Shown: positions 1,938-58,315, counted from the stretch's first letter. The stretch: 64,000 bases of DNA from Bugula neritina (GCA_964035545.1 OZ037767.1:15070998-15134997); one strand, 5' to 3'. The notes: generated from the letters alone by a model not told the origin. A program made the numbers and translations.

Positions 1938-2983
1938 AGTGCAGTTGGTTCTATTATTAGATTAGCATATTGATTATGACTTTTCGATTGCCACCCTGAT
2001 ACTATGAGTAAAATGTACAAGCATACGTGAAAGTATAGATATGATCATAAGTATAAAAATAGGTATAAGTATAAATATAAATATAGGTACAAGTATAAAA
2101 TGAATGATTATATTATTAATAATATTAGTCAGTGATACCTATAACCGTAATGGTTTTTAGACTTACAGTTATCATTAACATTAGCTGAGTAATATGATTA
2201 GTTAAAATAATGGTATTCATTATTATATCATAGTTATAAGTTATAACTCTAGTCTCTAAAGAGCAACAGCAAGTGTAACTGGGATATTCATATTAAATTT
2301 CATATTCACATGGTGCAATGTTTATGTTATGAACTAATTTATTCCTTCAACATTTAACTATAAATATGATTAACACTAACTTTGACCAGCAGTATTACTA
2401 AAAGAAGCGTATTACAAATATAAGATAATAAAATTCTAGTAGTAGGACTAATAGTATTACTAGGTCCAGTATTATTCTTGTTATCTTATTCATCATTCAT
2501 GAGTTATCAAATTTAAAATTACTACTTATTAGCATCAGCATATAAAAAGTAAGATCATTAGGAATAATTATCATGAGGTATGATCTATGATTTGCATTAT
2601 CCATATATAGTTTAATATCAATATGATATATTATTATTGCTGATAGTCTATGTTATAGTTAAATTTATACTTATCTTTACAGTTACCTATAGTAGCACTT
2701 ATTAGTTATTTGTGGTAGCCAAACTAATGTTTAATATTAATAAATTAAACTGAGTATCATAAAAGTGTTACTAAGAATTTTAATTATAATCGTAATGGTG
2801 ATCATATTACTTTATTATAATTATTATATTTTATCATTAATGCTAAACTGAGTTAATGTATATACTTTGAGTTTTACTATTACTCATTATATTTACACTT
2901 ATAGTAAAACTAAATATGTAAAAGTTATACTTATACTATTATTATTCGTATTTCATTAGACTTACATCTAAGATCGCAGTCCT

Positions 2984-3130
2984 ATTACTACTACCACTGA
3001 TACTAGTACTACAACTAGTACTAGTACTACAACTAGTACTAGTACTGCTACTAGTACTAGTACTACTAATAGTACTGTTACTACTACTACTACTAGTACT
3101 ACTACTAGGTCTACTACTGTACCAGTACAA
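2984..3130. repeat. Degenerate (ACT/AGT)n microsatellite
   Basis: Runs of CTACTA/CTAGTA; produces the spurious Ser/Thr-rich ORF 2942-3130. Confidence 0.85.
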
Positions 3131-6100
3131 CTACAAACTTTGAAAATAACTGCAAGAAAGGTATGACTTACTCTTTTTCTTAGTCTTACTGTGACTCTCA
3201 GTCGTAATGTAAAATAAAATTGTGAACTGTAAAGTTAAACCCAAGGCTGAAATTTATTTAATTAAATTTAGACAATCTGAATCATTGGCTCAATCCTTGA
3301 GTTTGACTATTACTATTATTGTTACGATTGTGATTATCATTGGCATTATGCCATTATGATTATCATTATGATTGTAATTGTGGTAATTCTAACATTAATT
3401 ATAATCATAAATTAAAAGGTAATGATTAATGATAATTATTTTCATTTTGTAATCATAATGATAATCATAATGATGTAAATTTTGATGTAAAACCAAAATA
3501 CTAAAACTAAAAGTAAAAGTTATAAAATTAAATGATAAAATATTATAATGATAATTATTATATTAATATTTATTATATTATTATTGAATATATTATTTCA
3601 TTAGAAAATAGGTTGCAGCTTAGCATGATTAAAATTCAGTAAAAATTAGTTTACCAACAGCAAACATGCATGCGTCTTGTCAACATTCAATTCGTAGTGT
3701 CATAGCGAAGCCAGATTACTGGTAGTACGACTACTAGAACTAGTCAACTACTACTACTAGTGATGGATTACAGATCCTTGGCGATTTTAGCTGTGAGTGA
3801 CCTTCACCTCACATTCTCGTCATGTGCGCCGCAGAGTAGAGGGTATAAAGCACTGAGCTGGAAAAGAAAGAATATATTTTAATTATAGGTAATACTAATA
3901 GTAATATAATTTATGGTAATATATAGGTAATATTATTGAGTTCATTGGTATGGAGTATAGACCTATCACTGATAGTATCAGTATCAACTACCACTTACGT
4001 ACTACTTCAACTTATAACTTACCTTCAACTCAAACTGAAACTGCTTGGAATCATTTGTCTTTGATCATATTGGCATTGTCATTGTGATTGTAATAACTAT
4101 TAATATTTTTAGTTCAACATCAATGCCGAACATATTGTAATAACTAATAAGATAATCATAAGGTTGATATATTTTGCTAATACTAATACTAATACTAATA
4201 GTTATAGTAATAGTTATAGTATTTCAGTGTCACTCTCACTCTGGTGGAGTGAGACTCAGACTTAGAGTTAGAGACAGAGTCAGAGTGAGTCCGAGTAAGT
4301 CTGAGTGTTGGTAATAGTAATAGTCATATAAATTTAAATTATATTTACTTATTTCTAGCAATCACAATGGCAATAGTTATAGTAACTTTCACTCACTCTT
4401 AAATCATTGAACCTGAACTAAAAGTAAAATTAAGCATTATGATTATCATTATGATTATACCTATGATTTTATTATGTTTAAATTAAAAATCACTATCATG
4501 ATAATATCATAGTGATAGACATATTATTGATAAATGATAATATAAAAGTAATTTGATAAATTATACATTGATTTTGAATTAAGGTGATACTGATACTAGA
4601 CCGGTACTGAAAGTGATAGTAATACTAATAGTAATAGTAATAGTCATATAAATTTAAGTTATATTTACTCATTACCGGCAATCACAATGGCAATAGTAAC
4701 TTAAACTGTAACAGTAATGGTATGGGTATATTTGAAATTGTCACTATCAGTATTGCTATGAATCAAAATATAATGCTATCATACCAATAATTTAAAATAA
4801 TATTACAAAGCTTCAGTAGCAACTTTTACTTGTACCAGTTTGGAATTTTGAATTATACATATTCTTAGTTAAAGTCTTCAAGTTTATTGTCAAAATGAAC
4901 TTGAAATTAAAGACTTAGTAGTAAAAATTAAACTAAGACTGACTGTAAGTGACTAAGATTAAAAATAAGTAATTTTAAATATCGATTTAGTATTTTTCTT
5001 ACTCTTTGTCTTAAAATTGACTTTTATTTTGCACCTACTCCTGGTCAATGATTCTTTTTTCTATTTATATTACTATTGCTATTAGTATAATTGACTTAAA
5101 TTTAATAATAGATATGATTATATCTTTATAAATGTGATATTTGATTTTATGAATAGTAATTCGAAAACTCTTTGGTATTATTTATTTTTGATCATTGTAG
5201 TTATCATTATATTTGTATAATAATTATGATTATCAAATTCATTATCGATATTTGTATTATGGTATGGATATCTGCCTCCATCCCATGTTCTATTTTGCAG
5301 TGCCTTTTTACATTTACGTCTAGGTTCACATTGCGATGGTCATACTGATAGCACTTGGGGACAGTGATGACCATAATGATTATCACTAATATTAGGATTA
5401 TCGTTATTAGGATTTAGAATAATTTAATAAACAAGCAACTTAAAACAAATGTTTTTACTAATATACATATTAATTACTAATATAAATATACTACTATGAA
5501 TATTATAATTATTATACTTTACAATTCAAAGTAAGATAATCATAATACGAACTGGTAAAACTAAATATAAAGTAAATGTAATAATACTAATAGTAGTTAT
5601 CCATTCCCCTTTGGTTTCACATACCAATAATTGGAAACCTCTGTCCTAATATTATTTCTATTAATATTGCTCAAAGTTTGATCCCTATTTAATTTTATAG
5701 TTCACTCACCAGCTACATAATTTTATTAAAATACATGTGGTATTGGTTATAGTACTAGTGAAACTTGAAGTTGAATAGCATGCTTATTACTCACTGCTCT
5801 TTGCTTACATTATTAGGGTTACTCTTTAGTCTTAGAGATACCCTAACATAAACTTGAAAGCTGGAGGTAGTACTAGTCTGGTGCTGTGTTAATCCTACAC
5901 TGTTGACTTATCAACACTGTGACTATAATTATGAGTCATTATAAGTCATTTTCATATAGTAGTAATCACTATGACAGACTGAAAGTCAGAAAGACTAAAT
6001 ATAATGGTAAAGTGTGTAAGAATAAATCATACTTAATCAATTACTTTTAGTTTTGTTACCAGTGTTGGGTCAACTTTCAGAATAAAGAATAAATATAATT

Positions 6101-6882
6101 ATAAAAATAAATGGATAAAAATTCCAATCATGGTTTAATGTGCCTATTTTAAGCTGTTAATTTAATTACTATAATATAAGTGCTCAAAATACAACTTTTG
6201 ATTTTCATAATTATGTTTTAATTTAATACAGATACCATAGCATCATATACGGTAGAATCAGTTGTATCTTATTTAATAATAAAGTAACTTTTTGCAGCTT
6301 TCACAGTTATTAATTATTCACTTGTTAGTCTTTGAACTGGGACAATGTTTGAAACTTGAAGTAGGATGAAGTTTGATTTCAGTTACCGCAATGGTATCTG
6401 CAGTCACAATAGGAATACGCATATAACTATGTTTATATTTGTGAAAAATATATAGTCAAAACTAGATAAGGTAATAGTAATTATAATTGGTTTCACTTTT
6501 AATATATTCCTATAAACTGGAAAATAGACAGAAGCATTTAATCATGAAAATAAACCTAGTGGAAGTAAATCAATTCACTAAGTATAGTAAAATATTTACT
6601 ATTCAGTAAGTTTATTTACTTTAGTTAATTGTACTTGATTATTTCTGTCGGTTTTTCAGTTGATTTTTCTACTTTTTGCTATAGCATATCAAACTACCAC
6701 AAAGTCATGCTTCCGTATTACAATTATAAACATAGTGTTCCTGTGTAATGTTATAGTAATGTAATAGTAATATTTGGATCATTGTAAGTATTTCTGTTGT
6801 TGTACTGATTGATAAATATTTTTTAGCTTGCATGGATATTTGCAACGATCAAGATGCCATTTGAACCTGGACTGGAATAAAG

Positions 6883-8247
6883 ATGGCAAATCGAGAAGCT
6901 AGCTACAATTATTCTGCTGAAAGAAACTTGGTAAGCAAAAATAAGCTGCAGCATTAAGCAGTAAGCAATATGACGATGAACTTTGCTTGATTTTGATTGA
7001 CCTTAAAATATCTGGTCACCTTTCACCAACGTGGTCCTGCGCGGGTGGCGGGTGACCTTAAAATGTCTGTTGCACGTAAAATAAATTTTGTGACAGTCAA
7101 AAGTATGCTGATCTTTTTCGTATTTCAGTGCATCGGTGTCTTAGCTTAAGAGCTGAACCCAACAATTATGATCTAAAGCTGTTTTTTACTAGAAAGTGAT
7201 TTTACTGTCTTTCTGATTATTCTTGGTTTTTCAGCTTGATGAATTGAATAAATGGATTTGATTTCGGGTATTATGTAATGGATGAAAGAAATTTTTCTTA
7301 AATTTGTACTGAGCAATTTTTGCTATTGCTATGATGTTTAGTGATAAAATTGCACCCTTAATAACCCTGAAAACTTTCATTACTAGCATTTGTTTATGTT
7401 CATTTTTAGGAAATTAAAATGAAGACACAACTCACCGATGCTATCTCACTGTGCCTGCATGCAGTTTATCTAAAAAGGTACTCCTATTAGCTGGCTCTTG
7501 CCCAATACCTGGTTGTCTCTGTAACTATTTTTTGCTCGCAGATGAGTTTTTTGAACTTGACATTTTATTGATTTTGAAAGTTATAGTGAGCTTTGAACTT
7601 GCTAGCATCGTTTTTTAAAGACTTGCTGCAGTTTTTATCAACATTTTTTAAGTCAATGGTGTTAGTTTGGAAGCTCTCTCACTCCTCTCTCTGTCTCTTT
7701 CTCCCACACCTTCCACTCAATCTCTCTCTCTTTCTCCCCCTCTCTCCCACCCTCCCTCTCTCCCACCCTCCCTCTCTCCCACCCTCCCTCTCTCCCACCC
7801 TCTGTCTCTCCCACCTTCTCTCTCTCCCACTCTCCGTCTCTCCCACCTTCTCTCTCTCCTAACCTTTCTCTCTTCCCTTTTCCACTATCTCTCTGACTCT
7901 CTCCCTTTCTCTCTTCTACCCCATCTCTCTTCCATCCTCTCTCCTAACCTTTCTCTCCCACACCCCCCCCCTCTCCCACTCTCTTTCTCTCTCTAGTTTG
8001 CATGGCTTTACCCAATTTTGGTTTATTTTTTTATCTTGTTTCAGAGTATCCAAAAGGAAAGCTAAAATTTATTTAATATATATTATACCAACTTGAGCTT
8101 TACATATAATATCAAATAAATGCTGTGTTTTGTTAAAACAATGTTTGCAACTTTGTAGTATATTCAAATTCATAATTTATTTGTAGAGTCACACAACAAG
8201 ACACTACTCTGACACACTCACAAGTTGCCACTGATCCAGCAGTATAG
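6883..8247 (+). CDS. Possible small spliced ORF (58 aa), or exons of a non-coding transcript
   Basis: Putative exons 6883-6930, 7410-7477 and 8187-8247 with GT-AG sites join in frame to MANREASYNYSAERNLEIKMKTQLTDAISLCLHAVYLKRVTQQDTTLTHSQVATDPAV*. No recognisable family. Confidence 0.2.
7673..7995. repeat. Polypyrimidine CT-rich tract with ~18-bp unit CTCTCCCACCCTCCCTCT
   Basis: Visible directly; the Leu/Ser/Pro-rich ORFs here are artefacts. Confidence 0.9.
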
Positions 8248-11200
8248 ATGATTGTTTTCTCCACTGGCTATGCTGTCACGCTTTACTGTTGTGGTGTTTG
8301 AAACAAACCAATTGTTTGCCTACGCAGATTAGGGTGAGAAAAAAAGTGAGAAATGAAAGCTGTTTTTAATACCAACTACACTTAGTTTTTATTGAATGAA
8401 AAACAAAGTGAAATCATTAGTTATCCGTTAAATGACTAAATCATTGTTTATAAAGATGAAACACAAATAATCTTATAATATGCTAATGAAATTTGGCTTT
8501 CAAATAGCTTTTTTCTGTATATTTGTTGAGGAAGTTTATCTTCAACAAAACTTCGTAGCTGTTGAATATGTGGAGAGTATTTTATATTGCATAAATTTAT
8601 AGAGTAAAAGGTTCTCATCAAACTTTTACAACTTAGCTCATCGACGGTTTAAAAGTGTGAGTCACCCTTCACACTAGAGTTTTATAAAGTTTTAATGAAT
8701 GTGCAGTATTTTATAAGATATTGTGTGTCTCGTAAATTTAGCTATTTCTACCTTTTCAGTGAGATTGGAGTAAACACACCTCAAAATTCACATCTGGTAT
8801 CACATTGATTTATCGCAAGTCAAAGTACACCTACTAACTCTTCCTTCCCTAATACCTGCTTGCTTTTGCACTTCTACTCATTTCATATACCTAACATTTC
8901 TCTTGCAGATGAATTACATCTTTTAAGTTGTAAAAGCCTTAAATAGCATGAAATTAATGAAGTTTAAACCGTGGCCACACTAACTATTGATGCGTTTATT
9001 GATGGGTTAAATTACACGAAAATATTGTCTCTTTCTTTTTAGTTTCACCTAAAGTATTACATACTATTGATGGAGGCTTTGCTGAAGTTTTTGGGTGATG
9101 ATTTGTCAATAATTTTCCAGAGAAGCTGGCTGGCATCATTATGCAGTTTCCAAATTTCTTTCGGCTTTGCTCTAGTGAAAATGTTGGAAAACAATCAACA
9201 AAAAGGTTTGTACCATAAACGAAGTTATTGTGTGCGTGTTGTCAAAGCATAAAGTGTGCTGGAAATTTTTGGGTTTCTGTTGAGATGCGTTTTTGCTTTT
9301 CCTGCATGAAAAAAGTTCCAGTTTCAGTTAATATCACTAGCGGAGTGCCCACCTATATTTTAAATCATATTGATGCATAAGTTCTTTTTGTAATATTAAA
9401 AGTATAACTTGCTTAATTGCTATTCAATGCCCTTTGAAGTTTCCAACTGTAATTAATTAGTTGATTTGGCAGCATAGTATCGATGATTGATGAAGGCAGC
9501 CGATATAATTATAAGCATAAATATCTATATCTACATGAAGATGTCATTCCCAATGATTGTTATTCTGAAATCAGCTGATTAAGTTATCACAAACTAAACA
9601 TTTTGACCAGCGGCTTGCAATGCAACTTGGTGAAATTTCAGACCTAGATAAATTGAATTTCTTACTGAAAATCGTGAAGGTATTAAAGTTTAAAGTTAAA
9701 GTTTAAAGGGTCATCTCTCTGCGAATTCTAATAGCATGGTGCCAATTAGACTTGAAAAAATTTCAAGGCACTACAAAGCACTAAGCCCATTCTTACAAGT
9801 AGTTTCAAAGTGCACTGGAATTTCAGTTTACTTGTCATTGTATAGAATCCTGATCTACACTATATAGCATTCACTATTGCCTGCTTCTTTTAAGCATCTA
9901 TAATGTATTAACTACAGTTTGCTTTGAGAAGTGAATTTCTACTTGGTATTTTTTCCTTATCATTCCGTTGTTTGCCAGTAGTCTTAATTTAATGGATTTT
10001 CCCTTTTCAAAAGTGGTTGTGACAATCAAAACACATCATGCAGCCTGCAACTACACAATCAGTTAGTAATTTCTTCCATTAAAGTAGCTCTTCTGGTTAC
10101 TCTTGCTCACCTAAAAGCCTGAGCCTCATTCAAATTGCAAGTTTTTAGAGTTGTTAATTTTTCATGCAGTCCTTCATTTTTTTTTTGTTAGGCACAAAAT
10201 TAGTATTCACTAGACCTAATCTTTCATCTGCATGTATGCCTATTGTTTGTTCATTAAAGAAAAACCTCTGCTAAATATTGAACTAATAATGAAAATAAAT
10301 TCCCTGAACTAAAAGTAGCAGTGTGATTTTGGTATTACAATTAGTTGTTAGCATAGAGTCAAGTTATTGACAGGAATTTTCAAATTGAAATGAATGAATT
10401 TCATTGTAAGTCAGCAAGATTTAGTCTAAGTAAACATAGCATTACATTGTGTTTTATTTAGCATTTGCAGAAGGCAACATATATTTTAAGGATTATTGTA
10501 AACTTAAATGTAATTTTAAGTACTTTCCATGTTTGTTATTGTAGATGGTCTTGTTCTTTGGGATGAATGTGACAACTCCTTGTGTCAAGCTTAACTGATT
10601 GACTACTGAATCCCAATCATATGTTTTGCCAAAAAATGTGAAAATGGAGTGCATGTCTACTTTGTTTGAAAAAATATTAAAAATACTTTTGAAACTTCAT
10701 CTAGCCAAACAATACAACAGTTTCATTTCATTAAAAAATATCATTTGCACAAAAATGTATTATGTAATCAAACAATTTCTAGAAAAAAAGTGCTTTCCTC
10801 CAGTTTTGCTAATGAACTAAATTTTTCATTATATGCTTGTCTTTATAATTTTATTAATTGTTTTTTCTGGTGAGTCAATTAAAGTCAATTCAACCTAGAA
10901 AAGTCTGAATTTCAGACTTAATTTCAAGCTAGAATATTCACATTTTTAGGTCTGCGTTTGCAAACATTGTTGTGTTACTTTACTTTTTATATTTTTTGAA
11001 ATAAATATCTTTTTAGCTTGTGCCTATTCATGATTAGAATAGTATAATAATATTTAACTTTTCTTCAATTTCAATAGATGAAAATGTTGATCAGTTGGAG
11101 TATTCAGTTTAGCTGAATTTTACTTGCTTCTGCGAAAACAATCTTTTGGAGTTGTCTGCCCTCTCTTTAGGTAATTTTTTGACCTATGGTCAACGCAATA

Positions 11201-34977: not shown

Positions 34978-36930
34978 AATCACCTTTGCAACATAATTCA
35001 ATAATTGCATGGTCAAGCAGAATAAACTACAATTAACAGCAACAACAGTGTAATAGTTGCGTAGAAAAGTTGTACTGCAAAAAACTAAAAGAATGCAAAA
35101 TCTATAAATGTGTGCTACCAAGTAAATGCTGAACAGACATCATGAAATAGTGTACGAAATACAAACTATTAAACTTACCTGTTGATCTAATGCAGCCAAA
35201 ACCTTAAGCTTAGAGTAGTGGAATGGTGCTGTTCGATGTTGATATGCTACAAGTAGCTAAGATGACTCAAATTCTTGCCTTTAGGAGTAAGAGGCCTCAG
35301 CTCAGTTTCAACAAAACTTCCAATAATCTCAACGGATGCGCTCAATTAGGAGCCACAACAAAGCACACCCATGTCATTTTAGTAAACTCTAAAAAATGAA
35401 CGAAAATAAAACTGTTAGAGAGTAAACAGAGAAACATATAGTGATGGGGGAAAAACCTGTCAGCAAAGGTTAGATACACTCATAGCCATAACACGAAGAA
35501 AAAGATAATGAATAACAACCTATTCAAGATGACACAAGAAACCAAACAAATTTCTTTGACTAAAAATATAATTAAATACTATATTACTTGGCAAAAAATA
35601 TTTGTTTTGAACAACGTATTATTGGGAAGAATTGCCAGTGTCTTAAATTTTGAGATTAAAATTTCTGCCTTATAGCGGAAATAGAGAGGCAATCAATAGT
35701 GTACAAAACGTGTTTTCAGTCATTGGCTGTTGACTAAATTGACAAAGTTAAAGAAAGCTTCCATATCATTATTTATTTTGTTCTCAAGTGTGTGGTTACA
35801 GTTTCATGAGTCAGAAATATAATTATTTGAGATATGAAATCAAATGTAGTCAAAAGAGTGTCCTACAATTTAAAATGTAGTAATAGAGCTTTGACAATAA
35901 TTTCTTCTGCTAAGTAAAACAGGTACCATTATGTGCTACTTATCTTTTAGAGATGAACATCAAGGATGTTGAAAACAAAATAGTTGTAAATTACAGCAAA
36001 TACCTTTCTACTTACCTAACCAGAGAAAATAAGTTTTCAACCTTGCATGCACTCAGCTGGTTTTCAATGTTTGGATCAGTGACATCTTTATAACTGATAG
36101 CAGCATTATGTGATAGCTTTAGGAATTGTTACCTTAAATCTAAATTATATAAAACAAGAAGTGCAAAAATATGGCATTAGTACTCATTGCACAATACAAA
36201 CTTGCTAGAGTAGCTAATCTAGCATCACATTAATTTAAGAAAGACAAAATTTTATTACTGTTCACAAATGATGAATATTAAAATTTGAATAATTAGACAA
36301 ATTAACAATGATATTGATGCTACTTCAAACATTACCAATGGTAAACACCAAAATACTAATAGGAATAGTCATGTTAACATCAATTAGAAAAGTAAAGATA
36401 ATTTGAAAATGAGACAGTTTATAGGTCTAACTCTTATAGTTGACAAGCAATTACAGGGCAGTCATATTGATGTAGGCTACCCTCAAAATGTAGCACTTTA
36501 AAAATATTAAAAAGACAGCACATATAAGAACATAATCTTAAAAATAGGCATATGTGACACCTATATTTTGATTAACAAAGAAATCTTCTTTACTTTATTA
36601 ATATAGCTCATATAATGGTATTCTGTCTTAGTATGTTATTTTAATACTTGAAATCTAATCAGCTACAGAAAAGTACTTCAATTCAAAGGCCTTCATAATT
36701 ATTCTTTAGTTTGCTATTTAAATAGACAGTAAGGTTGATGAATAAAATAAAAGTTAGTAAAGTAAAAACTAAATAAATTGAGAATAATATCTCCACTCTA
36801 AGGTTATAATCCTTATAAATTAACATTTTAATACTCCTGTTATCCTTAGGTATAGTTGTTAGCAATTTAACTATGAGCTCGAAGCCAAATGTCAGTATCA
36901 GCATCCCCATTACATTGACTAAGACTGACT

Positions 36931-37039
36931 AGTAGTAGTAGGTGGATGGTCCTAGGACAACCCTTCCCCCGTCGAGTCTTTGACTCTCCGGTGTCAGGGA
37001 TTGTCCTAGGACGCATCCACCTACTACTACTCTATTAGT
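36931..37039 (+). repeat. Left TIR (109 bp, self-complementary)
   Basis: Exact reverse complement of 51317-51425; begins (AGT)3. Confidence 0.98.
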
Positions 37040-37220
37040 TTTTTTTATTAAGTTTTAGAAATTGTGCATTTTAGGACAGTTTATTATTTTATTGTCCTAG
37101 AATTGTACATTTTTTAGGGTAAACATTAACTTTTATTTTAAAATGTATTTACTCGTTACTATTAGTAATAGAAATAAATTATTATATTCTTAACGTATAA
37201 TAATTTATTATTAATAGCAT

Positions 37221-38117
37221 TTAAACGTTATAACTTGAAAATACTGGTAAAGATTCACTAGATTCTACTATATCTCCATCACTCGTTGATAATATTAATT
37301 TATTACCCGTTGCGTCTTGTAATTTAGGAATAGCGTGATTATTTATATTATTTATTGTAATAATATCGGTAATATTTATATTGGTTTCTACAATATTACC
37401 ATCACTCGAAAGCATTAATAATTTACCTCCGATTGACGGTTGTATTTTATTCATAGCAAAATTATTTATATTACTAGTTGTAACGACATCGCTAACGCTT
37501 AAGCTACTTTCCGCAATATTACCCGAAGTAGTTGAAACGGTTAATTTTTCATTCGCGGGTTGTATTTTATTTATAGCGAAATTATTTATATTACTAGTCG
37601 TAACAACATCGCTAACGCTTAAGCTACTATCTACAATATTACCCGTATTAGTTGATACGGTTAATTTTTCAGTTGGGTCTCGTATAAGAGGTACGGCGTA
37701 ATTAGATACATTAGTTTTTGTAACGACATCATCAACTTTTAAATTACTATCTATAACGCGTCCATCATCAGTTGATATAGTTAATTGGTTAATAGGGTTT
37801 TGTATAAGAGGTACGGCGTAATTAGATACATTAGTTTTTGTAACGACATCATCAACTTTTAAATTACTATCTATAACGCGTCCATCATCAGTTGATATAG
37901 TTAACTGATTAATAGGGTTTTGTATTTTAGGCATACTCGTATCATCAACGTATTTTTTTGTAGCCGCGTCTTGATCGTCAGCCGGATCAATGACTCTAGA
38001 TATTTTATTTTCCCCCATATCTAGCGTACCCGTAAGAGTACTACTACCGTTTATTAAAACGAATTTTTTCGTATTTATTTCCGTTTTTCCACTTCCTCCG
38101 AATTTATAAACACTCAT
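37221..38117 (-). CDS. Putative fibre/spike protein with six ~40-aa repeats
   Basis: LDMGENKISRVIDPADDQDAATKKYVD resembles a tail-fibre/YadA-stalk neck motif. It is followed by six 40-aa beta-rich repeats (120-bp period). Confidence 0.7.
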   Translation of the reverse strand: MSVYKFGGSGKTEINTKKFVLINGSSTLTGTLDMGENKISRVIDPADDQDAATKKYVDDTSMPKIQNPINQLTISTDDGRVIDSNLKVDDVVTKTNVSNYAVPLIQNPINQLTISTDDGRVIDSNLKVDDVVTKTNVSNYAVPLIRDPTEKLTVSTNTGNIVDSSLSVSDVVTTSNINNFAINKIQPANEKLTVSTTSGNIAESSLSVSDVVTTSNINNFAMNKIQPSIGGKLLMLSSDGNIVETNINITDIITINNINNHAIPKLQDATGNKLILSTSDGDIVESSESLPVFSSYNV

Positions 38118-38120
38118 TTA

Positions 38121-38879
38121 TTACGGTATATAAAATTCGTCTAACCCGTGTCTATACCTACCATTATTTTTTGAGGAAGAAAGATCTAAAGTAATAAAGC
38201 CGTGAGGTTTTTGCCATCCTTTATAACAAAAGTTTTTAAATTCGTTTAACGTTAAATCTCCGTTTACGTGATCTTGATATATATGATTTAAATTTTTTCC
38301 ATCTTGAGGAAATAAGCAAATAAAATTAGCGTTTTCTCGAATAGTGTTTCTAGGCAGCTTAAAATAATTTTGCGACAAATAAAAGCAATCGACATTATTG
38401 TGTCGTCCTCTTACGTAATAACTTTCACAAGTTTTTTGTTTTTCCAACATTAAATCATCGAATATTATTAAATTTTTATTATTAGCGTCTAATTTGCTAG
38501 GGTCATAAACGTCGTCACTAGATTCAATAAATTCGGCGTCTATATTACCGTTACCCTTACTATTTTTTAAAACACGAGTTACATTTATACCCGAATTTAT
38601 TATCGCGTCACTATTTTTAAAAAAATTTAAAATTTCTTCTTTAGTTAATTTACGTTCAAAAGCCTTCCTCATATTTATATATTCGGGTTGAGAAAGGCTT
38701 TTACCGTAAATCATAAGTTTATCGTAATCGAGCCAATTAGGTTGTAATAATAAATTACAAAGTAAAGTAGTTTTACCGCATCCAGATTTTCCAACGATAA
38801 GACCTCTTATGCTTTTAGGAAGTAAAGGATTATTATTACGATTAATTTCGTTTTTCCACGAAAGATTTTCTATTTCCAT
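38121..38879 (-). CDS. A32/FtsK-like DNA packaging ATPase
   Basis: Walker A GKSGCGKT, Walker B LIIFDD, RGRH motif, LSQ and IRENA. Confidence 0.95.
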   Translation of the reverse strand: MEIENLSWKNEINRNNNPLLPKSIRGLIVGKSGCGKTTLLCNLLLQPNWLDYDKLMIYGKSLSQPEYINMRKAFERKLTKEEILNFFKNSDAIINSGINVTRVLKNSKGNGNIDAEFIESSDDVYDPSKLDANNKNLIIFDDLMLEKQKTCESYYVRGRHNNVDCFYLSQNYFKLPRNTIRENANFICLFPQDGKNLNHIYQDHVNGDLTLNEFKNFCYKGWQKPHGFITLDLSSSKNNGRYRHGLDEFYIP

Positions 38880-38894
38880 TTATTATAATAAATG
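38877..38894. promoter_or_regulatory. Palindromic bidirectional initiator CATTTATTATAATAAATG
   Basis: A perfect 18-bp palindrome whose ends are the start codons of the divergent ATPase and PLA2-integrase ORFs. Function is inferred. Confidence 0.65.
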
Positions 38895-48400: not shown

Positions 48401-49134
48401 AAAATATACGAAATAGAGTTAACGTTAAATTAGTTACTAGCGAAAGCGAAGCTAAAAAGCTAACTAATCAGCCTAACTTTAAAAACTTCACTATATTTTC
48501 TGAAAATTTAATAGCCGTTCATATGAATGTAGTAAAATTAAAATTTGACAAGCCTATATATTTAGGTGCGGCTATATTAGACATTAGTAAAACTCTAATA
48601 TATGACTTTCATTATGGTTATATTAAACCAAAATATAATAAAAATGCGCAATTATTATTTACGGACACGGACAGTCTAATGTACCACGTAAAAACGAAAA
48701 ATTTTTATGAGGATATATTACCAGACATTACTAGAATATTTGACACGAGTAATTATCCTAACAATCACTCGTTACCAACGGGTATAAATAAAAAAGTAAT
48801 AGGTATGTTTAAAGACGAAGCCGGCGGTAAACAAATTACGGAATTTGTAGGCCTAAGAGCTAAATTATACTCTTACAAGATGGATGGTATGGAAGAGAAA
48901 AAATGTAAGGGTATTAATAAGACTACTCGTAATAATTGTATAACATTTGACGATTATAAAGAGTGTTTATTAACACGACGAGATCAGCTTAGAACGATGA
49001 ACGTTTTGAGAAGTCATAAGCATACAATGTACGCTGAAACAATAAATAAAGTAGCTCTGTCGGCCGAGGATGATAAGAGAATTATACTCGAAGACGGTAT
49101 AACTACAGTCCCTTACGGTTATATAAATGATTAA
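45454..49134 (+). CDS. polB: Protein-primed family B DNA polymerase with N-terminal terminal-protein region
   Basis: ExoI IYADFE, ExoII HNLSGYD, RKGVFPY, ExoIII YMKVDV, YLDANNLYG, KLMNNSVFGK and FTDTDS. Also a Rho-N-like N-terminus, NKCF...HY (OTU-like), a Zn finger and an EndoVII-like insert CYIC...DHCH...AHNNCN. Confidence 0.97.
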   Translation: MEFNTKITVKALKALAKERGLKRYSQLKKAELIRLLSPMDEPVPNIGQAPLIPTPVIKIMREIFTQTTRNIKKWVKGIVKPIAKIVNPIKDKIMALYNQPKLKEQAAKGWFQTYEIKGLPKYDIDSFSKLVKLNVIKLLKPTIKVKIFMYCEMEKINVRTGETIVEIMPFTSNIETILESTNINEIYDEIIERIKENFASLNAKGSSWTFKAIKKMEISINKYQPLNGSSWIDLPKEIKLKKAVINPKNEDNKCFMWAILMSIHTPKNHPERISNYKEYVNKFSWEGVEFPATKKSIDAFEEVNFDFGINVFTWDGKTINLWKKTKNQGKIINLFYISDDKKSHYAYIKNLNKLLGSQINKRVSAKHICVNCMNSFRSNESLKKHQNWCLTNDGVTTVFPKIENKIKFQSSHYCRSMRVPFTIYADFECFTKPIYGCKPNFKESYTNQYQQHEPSGFGYYIVSITGECNYRSYTKEAEDEDIGEQFIRLLEFDIKNLYKKHKFAKPMRITNSEQESFQLAENCYICEEKLGDDRVRDHCHLTRDYRGAAHNNCNLNYKIPKFYPIFIHNLSGYDAHLFIKNLGGEPSCIPNTEEKYISFSKKLLVDEFTNNKGEKIKVTREIRFLDSYKFMSSSLASLVANLKRDDFKHLQKHYIDCQKHYAEKQLDLLLRKGVFPYDYFNNVNVLNEKCLPPKEKFYSSLTESNISDEDYEHAQKVWREFNMKTFKDYHDLYMKVDVLQLADVFENFRNVCLKHYKLDPAWYYTAPGLSWDAMLKTTKLELDPITDVDQLLFFEKAIRGGVSMISHRYAKANNKYMENYNASEPSSYITYLDANNLYGWAMSKNLPVGNFKWMTEKRCKDLEKSLNFPPSFLEVDLEYSKKLHDSHKDYPFCPERIIINKVEKLVPNLNNKKNYVIHYKALKQCLMYGLKLTKIHKGITFNESNKLEKYIKLNTELRTLAKSDFEKDFFKLMNNSVFGKTMENIRNRVNVKLVTSESEAKKLTNQPNFKNFTIFSENLIAVHMNVVKLKFDKPIYLGAAILDISKTLIYDFHYGYIKPKYNKNAQLLFTDTDSLMYHVKTKNFYEDILPDITRIFDTSNYPNNHSLPTGINKKVIGMFKDEAGGKQITEFVGLRAKLYSYKMDGMEEKKCKGINKTTRNNCITFDDYKECLLTRRDQLRTMNVLRSHKHTMYAETINKVALSAEDDKRIILEDGITTVPYGYIND

Positions 49135-49540
49135 AATAAAAAATATAAAATTACAAAATAAAGCTCTCTCGAATATTGAATTAGAGTTTGCGATTAAAAA
49201 GTTAAAAATACCATTTTTTAGAGGAGTATTTTCAAGAAACGATTTACCCAATAAACCGCGTAAAAAAGAGTGCGGTATATTAAATTTAGACAATTTAATG
49301 GGTAACGGTACTCATTGGGTAGCTTGGTATAAAAATAACAATAAAAAATATTATTTCGATAGTTTCGGATTACATCCACCGCTAGAAATAATGAAATATT
49401 TAAAACCGCCTATATTTTATAACACGGAACAAGTACAAGAATTCGGTACCGTTATATGCGGACACTTGTGTTTATATTGGCTTAAAGAAATGTCTAAACG
49501 CGAGTCGCCTCAATTAATTATAAATAAATTACTTATATAA
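49127..49540 (+). CDS. Adenain/Ulp1-like maturation cysteine protease
   Basis: GTHWVA (His), YFDSFG (Asp) and Q...CGHLC (Gln/Cys). Confidence 0.95.
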   Translation: MIKIKNIKLQNKALSNIELEFAIKKLKIPFFRGVFSRNDLPNKPRKKECGILNLDNLMGNGTHWVAWYKNNNKKYYFDSFGLHPPLEIMKYLKPPIFYNTEQVQEFGTVICGHLCLYWLKEMSKRESPQLIINKLLI

Positions 49541-50053
49541 ATGACTTCAGTTTATATTTTTGGAAATTCGGCTAATATAATAAATGAACAACCGTATATT
49601 ACGAATATTATAATTCCGTCAGAATTTACGTATTATTTAGGAGGATTTACTACTACATTAATTAAAGATTTTTTAGTCGATGAACTGATTGAAATAACGG
49701 ATATATTAATACAATTTTACGGTGAACAAGCTCATAATACTAAAAAACTTTATTGGACTGATAAGCGAATAGGCTTACATATTAGAAATAGTACTGAATT
49801 ATTTAATCCATCCAATGAAAATACTTTTTATAATATAAGCGGTAATGAACACAATCTTCCGTTTAGCGAAATAAACGCTAATAAAATTATTGAAGCTAAT
49901 AAAAACTTTAAATTAACAATAGCGTTATCAAAAAATTATCCTAGTCATAAACCCAGTGACGTAATTTTAATCGACACTCCCGCTAGCGAAATAACCGATG
50001 CGGCATTACCCTTTCATTACGTATTAGTAAAACTTTATTATAATTATAAATGA
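49541..50053 (+). CDS. Tandem paralogue 1, beta-rich, putative receptor-binding/decoration protein
   Basis: Shares YWTDK, ISGxEHNxP and YPSHKP...DTP..EIT..ALPF with the next two ORFs. Function is inferred. Confidence 0.8.
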   Translation: MTSVYIFGNSANIINEQPYITNIIIPSEFTYYLGGFTTTLIKDFLVDELIEITDILIQFYGEQAHNTKKLYWTDKRIGLHIRNSTELFNPSNENTFYNISGNEHNLPFSEINANKIIEANKNFKLTIALSKNYPSHKPSDVILIDTPASEITDAALPFHYVLVKLYYNYK

Positions 50054-50583
50054 ATTCAGTATATATTTTTGGAAATTCGGCTAAAGCCAATATAATAAAT
50101 GAAAAACCGTATATTACGGATATTATAATTCCATCATATTTTTTATTTGATGGTAGATTTGATAAATTTGAAGGAATATTAATTAGAGATTTTTTAGTCG
50201 ATGAACCGATTGAAATAACAAATATATTAGTACATTTTTACGGTGAACAAGTTCATAATACTAAAGAACTTTATTGGACTGATAAACAATTAAGCTTAGA
50301 AATTAGAAATAGCGCTGACACATTTAAGTATGGTGCAGTCACTGAAAATATTTTTTCTTATGATATAAGCGGTGCTGAACATAATGTTCCGTTTAGCGAA
50401 ATAAACGCTAATAAAATTATTGAAGCTAATAAAAACTTTTCACTATTATTAACATTATCAAAAACTTATCCTAGTCATAAACCTAGTAATGTTATTTTAA
50501 CCGATACTCCCAATAATGAAATAACCAATACAGCATTACCTTTTCATTACGTAATAGTAAAACTTTATTATAATTATAAATGA
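50050..50583 (+). CDS. Tandem paralogue 2
   Basis: Same motifs; ATGA overlap with paralogue 1. Confidence 0.8.
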   Translation: MNSVYIFGNSAKANIINEKPYITDIIIPSYFLFDGRFDKFEGILIRDFLVDEPIEITNILVHFYGEQVHNTKELYWTDKQLSLEIRNSADTFKYGAVTENIFSYDISGAEHNVPFSEINANKIIEANKNFSLLLTLSKTYPSHKPSNVILTDTPNNEITNTALPFHYVIVKLYYNYK

Positions 50584-51104
50584 ATATTTATAAATTTAGT
50601 AAAGTCGATATAACGACTAATAAAGCGTTTATTTCAGGTCTTATACATAATAATAGATTTTATTATTACGAAAATATTAATAGCTTTACGGTAGATTTAA
50701 TTAACGATTATTTAGTAGATAAACCTATAAAAATAACGCACGCGTTAATACAATTTTATGGTGACCATTTTACTTGGGCTAAAAAAAGAGTATTATATTG
50801 GACCGATAAAAAAATAGGTTTACATATTCGTAATAGCGTAAATCCTTTTGATGAATCTAAAGAAAATTTATTTTATACTATTAGCGGTGCCGAACATAAT
50901 GTTCCGTATAGTAAAATAAATATTAATAAAACCGTTAACGCTAATAATAATTTTTCTTTTACAATAGCTCTTTCGAGTGATTATCCAAGTCATAAACCCA
51001 ATGACGTAGTTTTAATTGATACTCCCGCTAGCGAAATAACCGATACAGCATTACCTTTTTTTTACGTATATTTTAAACTTTATTATAATAGCATTCATGA
51101 ATAA
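50580..51104 (+). CDS. Tandem paralogue 3
   Basis: Same motifs with a more divergent N-half; ATGA overlap with paralogue 2. Confidence 0.8.
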   Translation: MNIYKFSKVDITTNKAFISGLIHNNRFYYYENINSFTVDLINDYLVDKPIKITHALIQFYGDHFTWAKKRVLYWTDKKIGLHIRNSVNPFDESKENLFYTISGAEHNVPYSKININKTVNANNNFSFTIALSSDYPSHKPNDVVLIDTPASEITDTALPFFYVYFKLYYNSIHE

Positions 51105-51316
51105 TCTACTAATAATTATTTTTTTTCTTAAAATAAATAATTTTACACTACTAATAAAATAATAAAAAAGTAAATTATTGTTATAATATTCTTCAAAAAA
51201 AAGTGAGCTAAAACCATCCACCCTAAAAATATTTTTTTTATTTTTAAAAATAAATATTTTTCTAAATAATATTATACTACTTTTTTATAATATTATACTA
51301 CTTTTTTATAATATTT

Positions 51317-51425
51317 ACTAATAGAGTAGTAGTAGGTGGATGCGTCCTAGGACAATCCCTGACACCGGAGAGTCAAAGACTCGACGGGGGAAGGGTTGTC
51401 CTAGGACCATCCACCTACTACTACT
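51317..51425 (-). repeat. Right TIR (109 bp)
   Basis: Exact reverse complement of 36931-37039; followed by TSD CTGACT. Confidence 0.98.
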
Positions 51426-51544
51426 CTGACTTTATAACCCTCAAGCTGTGGCACTCAATTTCTATAAGTAGTAACTAATAACAAATATAAAATTATTTAT
51501 TTGCTACTGATAGTGATAATAATAATAATTAAAAATAATAATAT

Positions 51545-54505
51545 GATCCATTAAAATAGAACTAATAAAGCCAACGACGTTAATGGTATGTCTAACTAAA
51601 CATGGCATGTCTCGTCTGGCAGTGGGTATGTGGAGGGCCAGGCAACCTACGGCCGTCAACCCGTTAATGGCACAACTAAAAGAAGATACTCAAGAGAAGA
51701 CAACAAAGTTGTCATGAAATGCTGCTTCAAAAGTACACCCAAATTGAGAGGTTATAGAAAAACAATGTATGAGCTCTGTAGACCTGGATCAAAGAATTAT
51801 TTAAAAAGAATGTGCAAACGCTGGAAAACAGAGGAGAGTTTAACATCAGCGAATAGAGACTAGCGGATTAAGCAAGAACTATGAAGAAACACAAGCATTT
51901 TATGGAAGAAGAACTCCATAAGATTGAAGAAGGAACCTTGCAAGAACTAGGCACATCAATTGGTGAAGAAGATAATGAAGAGCTAAATTTGCAAATAGAG
52001 GATGTTATAGTACAACATGAGATAGCATATAAATCAGCCATGAGAATTTTAAGAGTACCTAGTTCAGAGGTAGAAAAAGTGTTAGTAGAAAAATGATAAA
52101 TGAGCATAACAAACTATCTAATGATCGACCAACACTAAGAGCCCTTAGGCACATTGAGAGGGTCAAATTACTACAGGCAGTAAAACAGATTAGTGATGTG
52201 CTAAACTGTGTTGAGATTATTAATACCATTGAGCTTAATAACACCACCATGGCTTGTGCGAAAAATAGTAACAGAACAAGTGTGTAACAAAAAGGAAAAA
52301 GAAAAACTGACAATGTACAAGTATGGAAAATACGACTGCAGAAGAAATAAAAAGAAATTAGATCAGACTTAAGTAAAATAGCAGAGTGAAAAAGTAGAGC
52401 TTACAATGATTCATTGAGAAGAATGGTTGAAGAAAAATATAGGATAAAGAACAAAGAGTGTGGTGTAGTGATTGAAAAACTGAAGCAAAACCTGAGAGCT
52501 GTAAGCCAGAAGATAAACAGATATACAGAATGAGTTGATCAATATAATCAGAACACAATGTTTACAATGATAAGCGCTTTTATCAAGAATTACGAGGAAA
52601 TGAATACGTACATCTAAAGAGGCACCTGACAAGGAAATCAAAAGCATTCTGATAAAATATATGGGGTCAGCCAACTAAAAATAATACCAATGCAGAATGA
52701 CTAAATAAAGTTAGCAACAAATTGGAGCATATGTAAAGACAAGGAAATTAGATCTTAGAAACGATGCAAACAACTGGAATAGCAATTAATGTCATAAGGT
52801 TGATAAGAAAAAGCATGAAACCTGGAAAACACAACTGAAATACCTGGAAGAAAAGATAGGAGAAATAAAGATCAAACTAAGAATTTTCCAAGGAGACTCT
52901 TTATCTCTATCACTTTTCTCCAACTACCGATTCGCATGTCAGAAGCAGCTCAATGATGCAAATTTCGACGAGACAGAAAACAAACCATCTCCTATATGTG
53001 GATGACCTGAAGGTAAATAGGAAATCAAAGTGGGAACTGGAAGCTTTGGTAAACACTGCCGGGATCTTCACAAGGAATATAGAAATGAAATTTGGATTAA
53101 AAAATGTGCCACACTGGTTATGAGAAAGGGAAAGAAAATTAAGGACACAGGAATCAGTTTGCCTGATGAACAGGTAATCAAAGATCTGGGTGAGAAGCCG
53201 TATAAATATCTAGGAGTTCTTGAGATTGATGGAATACAAATATATGAAATGAAAAATAAGATCAAGGAGTACTACAAACAAATAAGAAAAGTTCTGGATT
53301 CAAAACTGAATGGTGAGAACACAATCAAAGCAATAAACACATGGGCAGTAACAGCAGTGCATTACACAGCTAGAATACTTGACTGAACTGTTTCATGAGC
53401 TAAAAAATATAGACTGAAAGACAAGGAAGCTAATGACAACAAACCGTGCACCCTATCCGAGAGCAGATGTAGGCAGGCTGTATTTTAGCAGAAGGGAAGG
53501 CGGTAGAAGAATGTTGTCAACTGAAAAATGCATAAAGATTGAAAACTGCGCACGTCAGACTACATAAATATAACATAGACTGATAGAAACACCACACTGA
53601 ATACCTTCCTAAAAGACAGAACAGCGGTAGAACTAAATAATGATAACGTGATAGAAAGAACTGATGAGTGTAAAGAAAAGCTTCACGTGGTCAATACATC
53701 AAAATGGTGGAAGACATGAAAGCATTTTCCTGGAACTGGTTGAAGTATGGTTGGCTGAAAAAGGAAACAGAAGGACTGCTGACAGCTGCGCAAAATCAAC
53801 TATTCACTACTAGAAATTATAAAGTGGCTATGATGAGAGAACAGGGTAGCAAGAAGTGTGGAATGTGTAACGCAAGAGACAAAACTTCGATGCACGTATT
53901 GAGTGAGTTTGAGAAGGTAGCAGAAGGAGAATATAAGAAAAAACACAACCTTTTGGCATTGATAATTTCAATAGTAGTTGTGTGAACTTCGTGGGTTTCA
54001 GAAAAGTAAGAATTGGTACGGCCATCAAGCAGAATAAGTACTGGAAAATGATAATGTGAAAACCTTGTAAGATTTTAACATACACACTGACGTAGTCATC
54101 AAAGTTAGGAGACCCGATATATTAGTAGTTGACAAGCATAATGCTGAAACAACGATAATTGATATCACAGTCCCTGTTAACTACAGAGTAAAAGAAAAAA
54201 ATTCGAAAAGTTAGGAAAATATCAGAATTTAGCACTAGAATAAACCCGCCTTTGGAAAACATCAAAAAAGTCATCCCGTTGTAACTGGAGCCTTTGGAGC
54301 TTTATACAAGATTGTAGACTGGCTGACACTACTTGGAGTAGCTGAAAACAAATGCTCATTAATTCAGCAGACACCCTTACTAGGATCAGGATAAGCTCAC
54401 ATCCTGAGGAAAGTTCTAGCCATTTCAGCCTAGTATAACTAGGCCAATGGTAAAAGGTTACACCAGCTAAAAAACTACGGTCAATCAACAATAATAATAA
54501 TAATA
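51545..54505 (+). mobile_element. Decayed R4/Dong-like non-LTR retrotransposon, near full extent
   Basis: 5' remnant RRYSREDNKVVMKCCFKS...GYRK, then the same RT/CCHC/RLE remnants as 1-1937. (TAA)n tracts flank both ends. Boundaries are approximate. Confidence 0.8.
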
Positions 54506-55550
54506 GTGCAGTTGGTTCTATTATTAGATTAGCATATCGATTATGACTTTTCGATTGCCACCCTGATACTATGAGTAAAATGTACAAGCATACGTGAAAG
54601 TATAGATATGATCATAAGTATAAAAATAGGTATAAGTATAAATATAAATATAGGTACAAGTATAAAACGAATGATTATATTATTAATAATATTAGTCAGT
54701 GATACCTATAACCGTAATGGTTTTTAGACTTACAGTTATCATTAACATTAGCTGAGTAATATGATTAGTTAAAATAATGGTATTCATTATCATATCATAG
54801 TTATAAGTTATAACTCTAGTCTCTAAAGAGCAACAGCAAGTGTAATTGGGATATTCATATTAAATTTCATATTCACATAGTGAAATGTTTATGTTATGAA
54901 CTAATTTATTCCTTCAACATTTAACTATAAATATGATTAACACTAACTTTGACCAGCAGTATTACTAAAAGAAGCGTATTACAAATATAAGATAATAAAA
55001 TTCTAGTAGTAGGACTAATAGTATTACTAGGTCCAGTATTATTCTTGTTATCTTATTCATCATTCATGAGTTATCAAATTTAAAATTACTACTTATTAGC
55101 ATCAGCATATAAAAAGTAAGATCATTAGGAATAATTGTCATGAGGTATGATCTATGATTTGCATTATTCATATATAGTTTAATATCAATATGATATATTA
55201 TTATTGCTGATAGTCTATGTTATAGTTAAATTTATACTTATCTTTACAGTTACCTATAGTAGCACTTATTAGTTATTTGTGGTAGCCAAACTAATGTTTA
55301 ATATTAATAAATTAAACTGAGTATCATAAAAGTGTTACTAAGAATTTTAATTATAATCGTAATGGTGATCATATTACTTTATTATAATTAGTATATTTTA
55401 TCATTAATGCTAAACTGAGTTAATGTATATACTTTGAGTTTTACTATTACTCATTATATTTACACTTATAGTAAAACTAAATATGTAAAAGTTATACTTA
55501 TACTATTATTATTCGTATTTCATTAGACTTACATCTAAGATCGCAGTCCT

Positions 55551-55700
55551 ATTACTACTACCACTGATACTAGTACTACAACTAGTACTAGTACTGCTAC
55601 TAGTACTAGTACTACTACTACTACTACTACTACTACTAATAGTACTGTTACTACTACTACTACTAGTACTACTACTAGGTCTACTACTGTACCAGTACAA
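55551..55700. repeat. Degenerate (ACT/AGT)n microsatellite, copy B
   Basis: Length variant of 2984-3130. Confidence 0.85.
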
Positions 55701-58315
55701 CTACAAACTTTGAAAATAACTGCAAGAAAGGTATGACTTACTCTTTTTCTTAGTCTTACTGTGACTCTCAGTCGTAATGTAAAATAAAATTGTGAACTGT
55801 AAAGTTAAACCCAAGGCTGAAATTTATTTAATTAAATTTAGACAATCTGAATCATTGGCTCAATCCTTGAGTTTGACTATTACTATTATTATTAGTGTTA
55901 CGATTGTGATTATCATTGGCATTATGCCATTATGATTATCATTATGATTGTAATTGTGGTAATTCTAACAATAATTATAATCATAAATTAAAAGGTAATG
56001 ATTAATGATAATTATTTTCATTTTGTAATCATAATGATAATCATAATGATGTAAATTTTGATGTAAAACCAAAATACTAAAATTAAAACTAAAAGTAAAA
56101 GTTATAAAATTAAATGATAAAATATTATAATGATAATTATTATATTTATTATATTATTATTGAATATATTATTTCATTAGAAAATAGGTTGCAGCTTAGC
56201 ATGATTAAAATTCAGTAAAAATTAGTTTACCAACAGCAAACATGCATGCGTCTTGTCAACATTCAATTCGTAGTGTCATAGCGAAGCCAGATTACTGGTA
56301 GTACGACTACTAGAACTACTACTACTAGTGATGGATTACAGATCCTTGGCGATTTTAGCTGTGAGTGACCTTCACCTCACATTCTCGTCATGTGCGCGGC
56401 ATTAGACTAAGTAGAGGGTATGAAGCACTGAGCTGGAAAAGAAAGAATATATTTTAATTATAGGTAATACTAATAGTAATATAATTTATGGTAATATATA
56501 GGTAATATTATTGAGTTCATTGGTATGGAGTATAGACCTATCACTGATAGTATCAGTATCAACTACCACTTACGTACTACTTCAACTTATAACTTACCTT
56601 CAACTCAAACTCAAACTGAAACTGCTTGGAATCATTTGTCTTTGATCATATTGGCATTGTCATTGTGATTGTAATAACTATTAATATTTTTAGTTCAACA
56701 TCAATGCCGAACATATTGTAATAACTAATAAGATAATCATAAGGTTGATATATTTTGCTAATACTAATACTAATAGTTATAGTAATAGTTATAGTAATTC
56801 AGTGTCACTCTCACTCTGGTGGAGTGAGACTCAGACTTAGAGTTAGAGACAGAGTGAGTCCGAGTAAGTCTGAGTGTTGGGAATAGTAATAGTCATATAA
56901 ATTTAAATTATGTTTACTTATTTCTAGCAATCACAATGGCAATAGTTATAGTAACTTTCACTTACTCTTAAATCATTGAACCTGAACTAAAAGTAAAATT
57001 AAGCATTATGATTATCATTATGATTATACCTATGATTTTATTATGTTTAAATTAAAAATCAATATCATGATAATATCATAGTGATAGACATATTATTGAT
57101 AAATGATAATATAAAAGTAATTTGATAAATTATACATTGATTTTGAATTAAGGTGATACTGATACTAGACCGGTACTGAAAGTGATAGTAATACTAATAG
57201 TAATAGTATTAGTCATATAAATTTAAGTTATATTTACTCATTACCGGCAATCACAATGGCAATAGTAACTTAAACTGTAACAGTAATGGTATGGGTATGT
57301 TTGAAATTGTCACTATCAGTATTGCTATGAATCAAAATATAATGCTATCATACCAATAATTTAAAATAATATTACAAAGCTTCAGTAGCAACTTTTACTT
57401 GTACCAGTTTGGAATTTTGAATTATACATATTCTTAGTTAAAGTCTTCAAGTTTATTGTCAAAATGAACTTGAAATTAAAGACTTAGTAGTAAAAATTAA
57501 ACTAAGACTGACTGTAAGTGACTAAGATTAGAAATAAGTAATTTTAAGTATCGATTTAGTATTTTTCTTACTCTTTGTCTTAAAATTGACTTTTATTTTG
57601 CACCTACTCCTGGTCAATGATTCTTTTTTCTATTTATATTACTATTGCTATTAGTATAATTGACTTAAATTTAATAATAGATATGATTATATCTTAATAA
57701 ATGTGATATTTGATTTTATGAATAGTAATTCGAAAACTCTTTGGTATTATTTATTTTTGATCATTGTAGTTATTATCATTATATTTGTATAATAATTATG
57801 ATTATCAAATTCAATATCGATATTTGTATTATGGTATGGATATCTGCCTCCATCCCATGTTCTGTTTTGCAGTGCCTTTTTACATTCACGTCTAGGTTCA
57901 CATTGCGATGGTCATACTGATAGCACTTGGGGATAGTGAGGAGCATAATGATTATCACTAATATTAAGATTATCGTTATTAGGATTTAGAATAATTTAAT
58001 AAACAAGCAACTTAAAACAAATGTTTTTACTAATATACATATTAATTACTAATATAAATATACTACTATGAATATTATAATTATTATACTTTACAATTCA
58101 AAGTAAGATAATCATAATACGAACTGGTAAAACTAAATATAAAGTAAATGTAATAATACTAATAGTAGTTATCCATTCCCCTTTGGTTTCACATACTAAT
58201 AATTGGAAACCTCTGTCCTAATATTATTTCTATTAATATTGCTCAAAGTTTGATCCCTATTTAATTTTATAGTTCACTCACCAGCTACATAATTTTATTA
58301 AAATACATGTGGTAT

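Follow-up and report, generated by a model that had tools for sequence, protein, structure and literature searches.

A seven-residue N-terminal tag, with the consensus M-x(1-2)-[VI]-[DNSY]-[KI]-F-G, is carried by four genes of a Maverick/Polinton in Bugula neritina and recurs at the start of proteins in related Mavericks. It is probably a capsid-anchoring tail for swappable attachment proteins. By analogy with the adenovirus fibre tail, there is about an even chance that this anchor binds a groove of the penton across Alpha-type Mavericks.

Structure of the Element

The tagged genes lie in an intact 14.5-kb Maverick/Polinton (adintovirus) at 36931-51425 of the window, that is, the whole 64-kb stretch of Bugula neritina DNA that was analysed. 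The element has the hallmarks of its class, namely terminal inverted repeats and a 6-bp target-site duplication, together with the usual gene set of rve integrase with chromodomain, packaging ATPase, adenain, double jelly-roll capsid protein and penton. Its ends and core genes are as follows:

36925..36930 (+) and 51426..51431 (+): left and right copies of the target-site duplication CTGACT, 6 bp
36931..37051 (+): left terminal inverted repeat, 121 bp, starting AGTAGT
38121..38879 (-): packaging ATPase (Pox_A32), by domain match
38892..40256 (+): PLA2-like domain, rve integrase and chromodomain in a single ORF
41541..42809 (+): double jelly-roll major capsid protein (hexon), PF21738, E 1e-57
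42810..43568 (+): penton by predicted fold, with an inserted domain at about residues 56-165
45454..49134 (+): putative family B DNA polymerase, 1226-aa ORF, polymerase motifs read by eye
49127..49540 (+): adenain-type maturation protease, Peptidase_C5, E 0.004, immediately preceding the head genes
51305..51425 (-): right terminal inverted repeat, 121 bp

Elements of this class encode a protein-primed family B polymerase; the candidate here is named from motif labels that we take to be those of family B, and a Pfam scan of its 1226-aa ORF gave no polymerase match. The PLA2-like domain and integrase are fused in one ORF of the window (38892-40256), but at several related loci the first part seems to lie in an ORF of its own further upstream.

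About 4000 contigs per run matched the element in two runs, mostly at less than 99% likeness, and the element therefore belongs to a large family; the summed contig depth over it should not be read as copy number. The empty-site joint 36924>51426, with six letters in common, is present in runs X4 and X12, and its depth in X4 is very high, so the element probably sits inside a host repeat. Two further joints, 51095>37175 (X1) and 37211>51203 (X4), connect the subterminal regions 37175-37211 and 51095-51203, and may represent rearranged or deleted family members. In addition, positions 1-8600 of the window recur about 52.5 kb downstream (52569-64000) at 92-100% identity, and this second copy has a 2.9-kb insert at 58314-61179 with long inverted arms, which is likely a DNA transposon.

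Four Tagged Genes on Two Independent Bodies

The tag stands at the start of one gene at the left end of the element and three at the right end:

37221..38117 (-): L, with the tag, a phage-fibre-type DAATKKYVD unit and six 40-aa shaft repeats, the last one short
38097..38117 (-): tag of L, MSVYKFG (start MSVYKFGGS)
49541..50053 (+): R1, tag MTSVYIFG at 49541-49564 (start MTSVYIFGNS), shaftless predicted jelly-roll head at residues 19-169
50050..50583 (+): R2, paralogue of R1, tag MNSVYIFG at 50050-50073 (start MNSVYIFGNS), its start overlapping the R1 stop
50580..51104 (+): R3, second head subtype, tag MNIYKFS at 50580-50600 (start MNIYKFSK)

All four N-terminal motifs claimed in the initial annotation are thus present, at 38117 (-), 49541, 50050 and 50580. 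Among the 16 ORFs of the element, [VI]YxF[GS] occurs in these 4, always at residue 3-4 and nowhere else, the chance being about 7e-5 per N-terminus. Three of five R3 relatives start MNIYKFG.

The description of the genes as four otherwise dissimilar ones does not hold. R1-R3 align end to end, with R2 72% and R3 60% identical to R1, and their genes are DNA repeats of one another; they fall in two subtypes, both of which recur among the relatives of the family, whose close members number only 13. Between L and the R bodies, the best BLASTP segment is the 9-residue tag itself (E 0.57), with no other likeness. Since R1-R3 are paralogous and L is unrelated to them, two independent bodies carry the tag here, not four. 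Likewise, in the proposed set of one long shaft and three compact heads, the shaft of L and the predicted heads stand, but the heads are not independent of one another.

L has PHROG tail-fibre matches at E 4e-6 to 3e-4. A search for a head domain in L found shaft only, and L is therefore not a complete adhesin alone. Its homologue P0014, which starts MNTVYKFGG, has shaft and head in one chain, as do genes of L032; this feature of fibres is absent from the present element, in which L is shaft only and R1-R3 are head only. Searches of Pfam, PHROG and PDB sequences gave nothing significant for the R family, and a comparison limited to unfused forms detected no sequence link from it to the heads of long fibres. 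Contigs of RNA-guessed origin span parts of L and R, which is not evidence of expression.

Predicted Folds of the Head and the Penton

The R1 model consists of a disordered 12-residue tail (pLDDT below 50) followed by a beta-sandwich body. Together with the alignment of tails, it gives a short unstructured aromatic N-terminus, as in adenovirus-type fibres, and the resemblance of the compact right-end proteins to fibre heads, which had been proposed from the start, is borne out as a predicted jelly roll with a disordered tail. In a library of viral structures, R1 matched collagen-fibre and tail-fibre proteins with TMq up to 0.5. Against the PDB, the best match had Z 7.8 (rmsd 3.0, 110 aligned residues) and none reached Z 8; the matches were phage tail, XepA, birnavirus VP2, cement proteins, TNF ligands and carbohydrate-binding modules. 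Among them, the trimeric phage cement proteins 7dou_4 (Z 7.0, rmsd 3.4, 105 aligned) and 7eel_H (Z 6.7) tie with the other top matches. The modelled body of R1 is a generic jelly roll, assignable to no family; as regards the adenovirus knob fold, it offers a beta-sandwich with generic matches only.

The naming of 42810-43568 as penton is borne out by predicted fold: its model (pLDDT 91) matches the mavirus penton at E 9e-11 and adenovirus penton bases at E about 1e-8. In its inserted domain, 27 of 110 positions are at least 90% conserved.

Distribution of the Tag in Other Mavericks

Enrichment of the motif at the N-termini of Polinton accessory ORFs, which the initial annotation had set as a test of its reading, is strong. 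In 11 Maverick contigs, which had been inspected before the pattern count was run, M-x(1-2)-[VIL]-x-x-F-G starts 11 of 158 ORFs of at least 90 aa against 0.12 expected. A tagged ORF is found in 8 of the 11, and two of those without it are partial. The same loose pattern starts 2 of 489 ORFs in 24 other viral loci, with 0.69 expected. The strict form has 14 occurrences in 12 elements, always at residue 3-4. Six viral contigs obtained by a penton profile search (34-50% identity) are all tagged; the tagged ORF is intact in five of them and disrupted in L024.

In a later scan, the tag was found in 4 of 10 Maverick-like loci (L042, L044, L045 and L112). The first three are close relatives of the earlier L036-L038, and in L112 the tag is on a small non-fibre-like ORF; L046 carries protease and polymerase only, and five more distant loci have no tag. 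In 60 other loci of that scan there were 2 loose matches in 828 ORFs. Five more proteins from a representative-set search start MPVDKFG. A profile search with the N-terminus of L was overwhelmed by proteins rich in repeats; of 150 proteins, 6 begin with the tag, including a near-copy of L. Collection scans gave no matches for the MCP or P0175 in viral contigs, nor for the penton or A2 in metagenome contigs.

Published adintovirus proteins also carry the tag. In the part of supplementary file 2 of PMC11071296 that was covered, six tag strings gave at least 46 matches, of which at least 27 are at or near N-termini of adintovirus ORFs (three following an upstream extension, and some being duplicates); the other matches, at least 19, are internal or in other viruses. 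The tagged proteins seen there are named Cah, tail fibre, Neurz, Polts or hypothetical, and 4 of 12 Cah entries among those listed have the tag. It is absent from the full protein lists of four elements with Beta-type features, Adinto13229, 14547, 14448 and 18043. The penton-less Adinto13229 and 14547 are not discriminating, because they are Beta-type; 14448 and 18043 are Beta-type or seemingly so. No tag was found in the distant Polinton-like and virophage-like loci examined. As to gene order, elements like that of the window have their tagged genes behind the protease or at one end, and another group has them next to the integrase.

Several observations lie at the margin of the pattern. L112 (6097-6486) and L033 (5757-6143) share a family of small ORFs (128-129 aa) after the penton module, with the start MMSVHKFG or the near-start VPLHKF; the family has no significant Pfam match, and these strings may be a tag variant or chance. 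The L112 Maverick contig was placed in a bacterial MAG and is probably mis-binned host DNA. A fibre-like ORF of L048 (10800-12023) has VDSYG at residue 13, perhaps a distant tag form. Three polyomavirus VP1-like proteins in the covered part of the PMC11071296 file end in ...RYINKFGQ, matching the tag. The match may be chance, or a hint that the tag makes a pentamer-binding hairpin. This end is presumably the VP1 arm that invades the neighbouring pentamer. A search of viral contigs with a DNA pattern for the tag yielded 18 matches; on translation, none fell within a fibre-like ORF, and these were treated as chance.

Constraint on the Tag and the Bodies behind It

In 15 aligned tails, F is invariant (15/15) and G is present in 14. 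The tag codons are a spread of synonymous variants across elements, so the constraint acts on the protein, and a nucleotide signal as the cause of conservation is ruled out. A cleavage site of adenain was also rejected by comparison with its consensus, as the residues after FG vary and most tails have no second Gly.

The bodies behind the tag are diverse. Thirteen tagged proteins were scanned, with discoidin F5/8C heads in three and PF03906 tail-fibre repeats in three; other bodies are short helical proteins of 76-132 aa, shaftless beta-sandwich heads, and long shafts whose C-terminal domains vary, and the long shaft-and-head members reach 400-700 aa. The tag is confined to fibre-like and head-like ORFs, core genes being without it, and is kept in shaftless proteins that have no detectable likeness to one another. 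A constant N-terminus on variable attachment-type bodies, retained after loss of the shaft, is what a capsid anchor predicts.

Probable Variation of the Array in the Host Family

The joints 49628>50164, 50116>49657 and 49980>51047 in the R array suggest gain and loss of R copies, the joint 38209>37220 points to a tandem L, and 38062/50585 (one contig of run X13) places an L-type start onto the R2/R3 boundary; all were matched at 80-85% likeness and may derive from related copies. Between R1 and R2, dN/dS is 0.79 overall and 1.26 over residues 1-100, on small numbers, and the variable sites cluster at residues 30-42 and 85-94.

Comparison with Known Systems

The initial annotation compared the motif with the adenovirus tail peptide FNPVYPY; the Maverick tag is a different sequence without likeness to it, and the resemblance lies in architecture. 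According to the text of PMC8156859 that was covered, the adenovirus fibre also has a short aromatic N-terminal peptide before the shaft and beta-sandwich head, its penton has the same fold with an inserted domain, and fibre genes can be multiple, some adenoviruses having two. Unlike it, Mavericks have phage-type shaft repeats, heads that are discoidin or generic jelly rolls, and as many as four tagged genes, of which some lack a shaft or a head, and their capsid binding is putative. The tag most likely works in the manner of the adenovirus fibre tail, by analogy, yet outside that family. In more distant Polinton-like or virophage-like loci, fibre-like or large ORFs (L027 2345-4147, L050 13787-14500, L051 1-1881 and L062 2016-2888) start with a Pro-rich stretch and then FN plus an aromatic residue, which looks closer to the adenovirus tail; a loose FN-aromatic pattern matched 17 of 931 ORFs, for the most part clearly by chance.

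Adenovirus protein IX and atadenovirus LH3 likewise have a conserved N-terminal anchor with unrelated C-terminal bodies, as far as the covered text of PMC8156859 describes them. They differ in that the Maverick tag, of about seven residues, also occurs on long fibres; inspection by eye showed no sequence likeness, and Pfam gave no match.

Adintovirus genes of the present class go under the names Cah, Fiber or tail-fibre-like in the portions covered of PMC11071296, PMC8502044, PMC10748475 and PMC12220804, and many genes so named (PMC11071296, PMC8502044) begin with the tag. The Cah class is defined there by helix content and is mixed; the tag instead unites Cah, tail fibre, Neurz, Polts and hypothetical proteins. 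The gene descriptions seen in PMC11071296 and PMC8502044 do not mention a shared tail. The fibres of protist Polinton-like viruses, as presented in the covered part of PMC12220804, are similarly modular and phage-like, with discoidin or laminin-G heads, and are assumed to be penton-attached, but are given without an anchor motif. No description of the shared tag was found in searches of the open full-text literature (subscription journals, repeat-database entries and closed bioRxiv supplements being outside this scope), and the tag string itself returned unrelated papers only.

Proposed Role and Capsid Partner of the Tag

We infer that tagged proteins are present in particles, form trimers and bind the capsid. 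Once the proteins have trimerised, the disordered tail of each chain would reach between the penton insertion domains, where [VI] and F would enter a hydrophobic cleft and the Gly of the tag would permit a turn. The body behind the tail, whether a long shaft with a lectin or beta-sandwich head or a shaftless head, would then decide what the particle binds. In the present element, the 12 vertices would be contested by, or divided among, the headless shaft and the three shaftless heads, which are diverging; duplication and unequal exchange would reshape the array of heads. A wider picture, in which Alpha-type animal Mavericks have one seven-residue vertex plug, a changing adhesin set per capsid, and tandem arrays in which copies are gained and lost and starts exchanged, is put forward tentatively, at somewhat short of even odds.

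It has been reported that adenovirus fibre tails bind the cleft between penton monomers (PMC8156859, in the text covered), and the long shaft-and-head members and the conserved penton insert favour the penton as partner. Penton covariation, with just two clade switches, one of them inside the insert, is uninformative on this point. A further case is Adinto14876, an Alpha-type element whose penton is without the insert (PMC11071296, in the part covered). It keeps an Alpha-type hexon and carries a gB fusogen, and 0 of its 13 listed proteins start with the tag. This favours the penton, as a single case confounded by the envelope, since the gB fusogen could make any fibre redundant. Against the penton, those tagged proteins that are short, at 76-132 aa, are similar to protein IX both in length and in construction.

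The main alternative, possible though less likely, is that the tag instead anchors in hexon valleys at three-fold positions, as in the IX/LH3 triskelion, so that the heads would be facet decorations and not vertex fibres. IX and LH3 provide the precedent of a common N-terminal capsid anchor under unrelated bodies, either coiled coil or knob (PMC8156859, text covered), several tagged proteins are filed as Cah, an IX-like class, in the records seen, the phage cement proteins 7dou_4 and 7eel_H are among the tied top fold matches of R1, and more sites per particle would fit four proteins. However, the 400-700 aa shaft-and-head members have classic fibre architecture, Adinto14876 is without the tag despite its Alpha-type hexon, and the protein IX N-termini listed in the covered part of the PMC11071296 file do not have it.

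The constancy of the tag could also reflect a signal addressed to the host, for import, sorting or degradation, or a mere remnant of a common gene start without a binding role. Short N-terminal linear motifs are often used by host machinery, and L-type and R-type starts may swap between copies, as at 38062/50585 in X13, which could spread a start passively. Such an origin is nevertheless improbable, because the protein sequence of the tag is conserved, through varied codons, in elements with pentons 34-45% identical to that of the window, and only on fibre-like or head-like ORFs, with none on core genes. It is improbable that the tag joins the proteins together without a capsid pocket, nucleating trimers or coupling the shaftless heads to the headless L as a split fibre: the element does have both parts, which the L homologue P0014 unites, but elsewhere most tagged proteins are complete fibres, many elements have one tagged gene, and the N-terminal tail of L is at the wrong end for capping a shaft.

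Implications

The tag bears on the means by which animal Polintons without an envelope would attach to cells. As a putative mark of attachment proteins, it would be a simple annotation handle in any genome, and it unites several arbitrarily named gene classes. If the tag is indeed a plug for the penton vertex, it marks the genes for receptor binding throughout a virus group, scattered under unrelated names. Moreover, an outer-capsid anchor kept together with variable lectin-like heads would be indirect evidence that the integrated elements are selected as particles.
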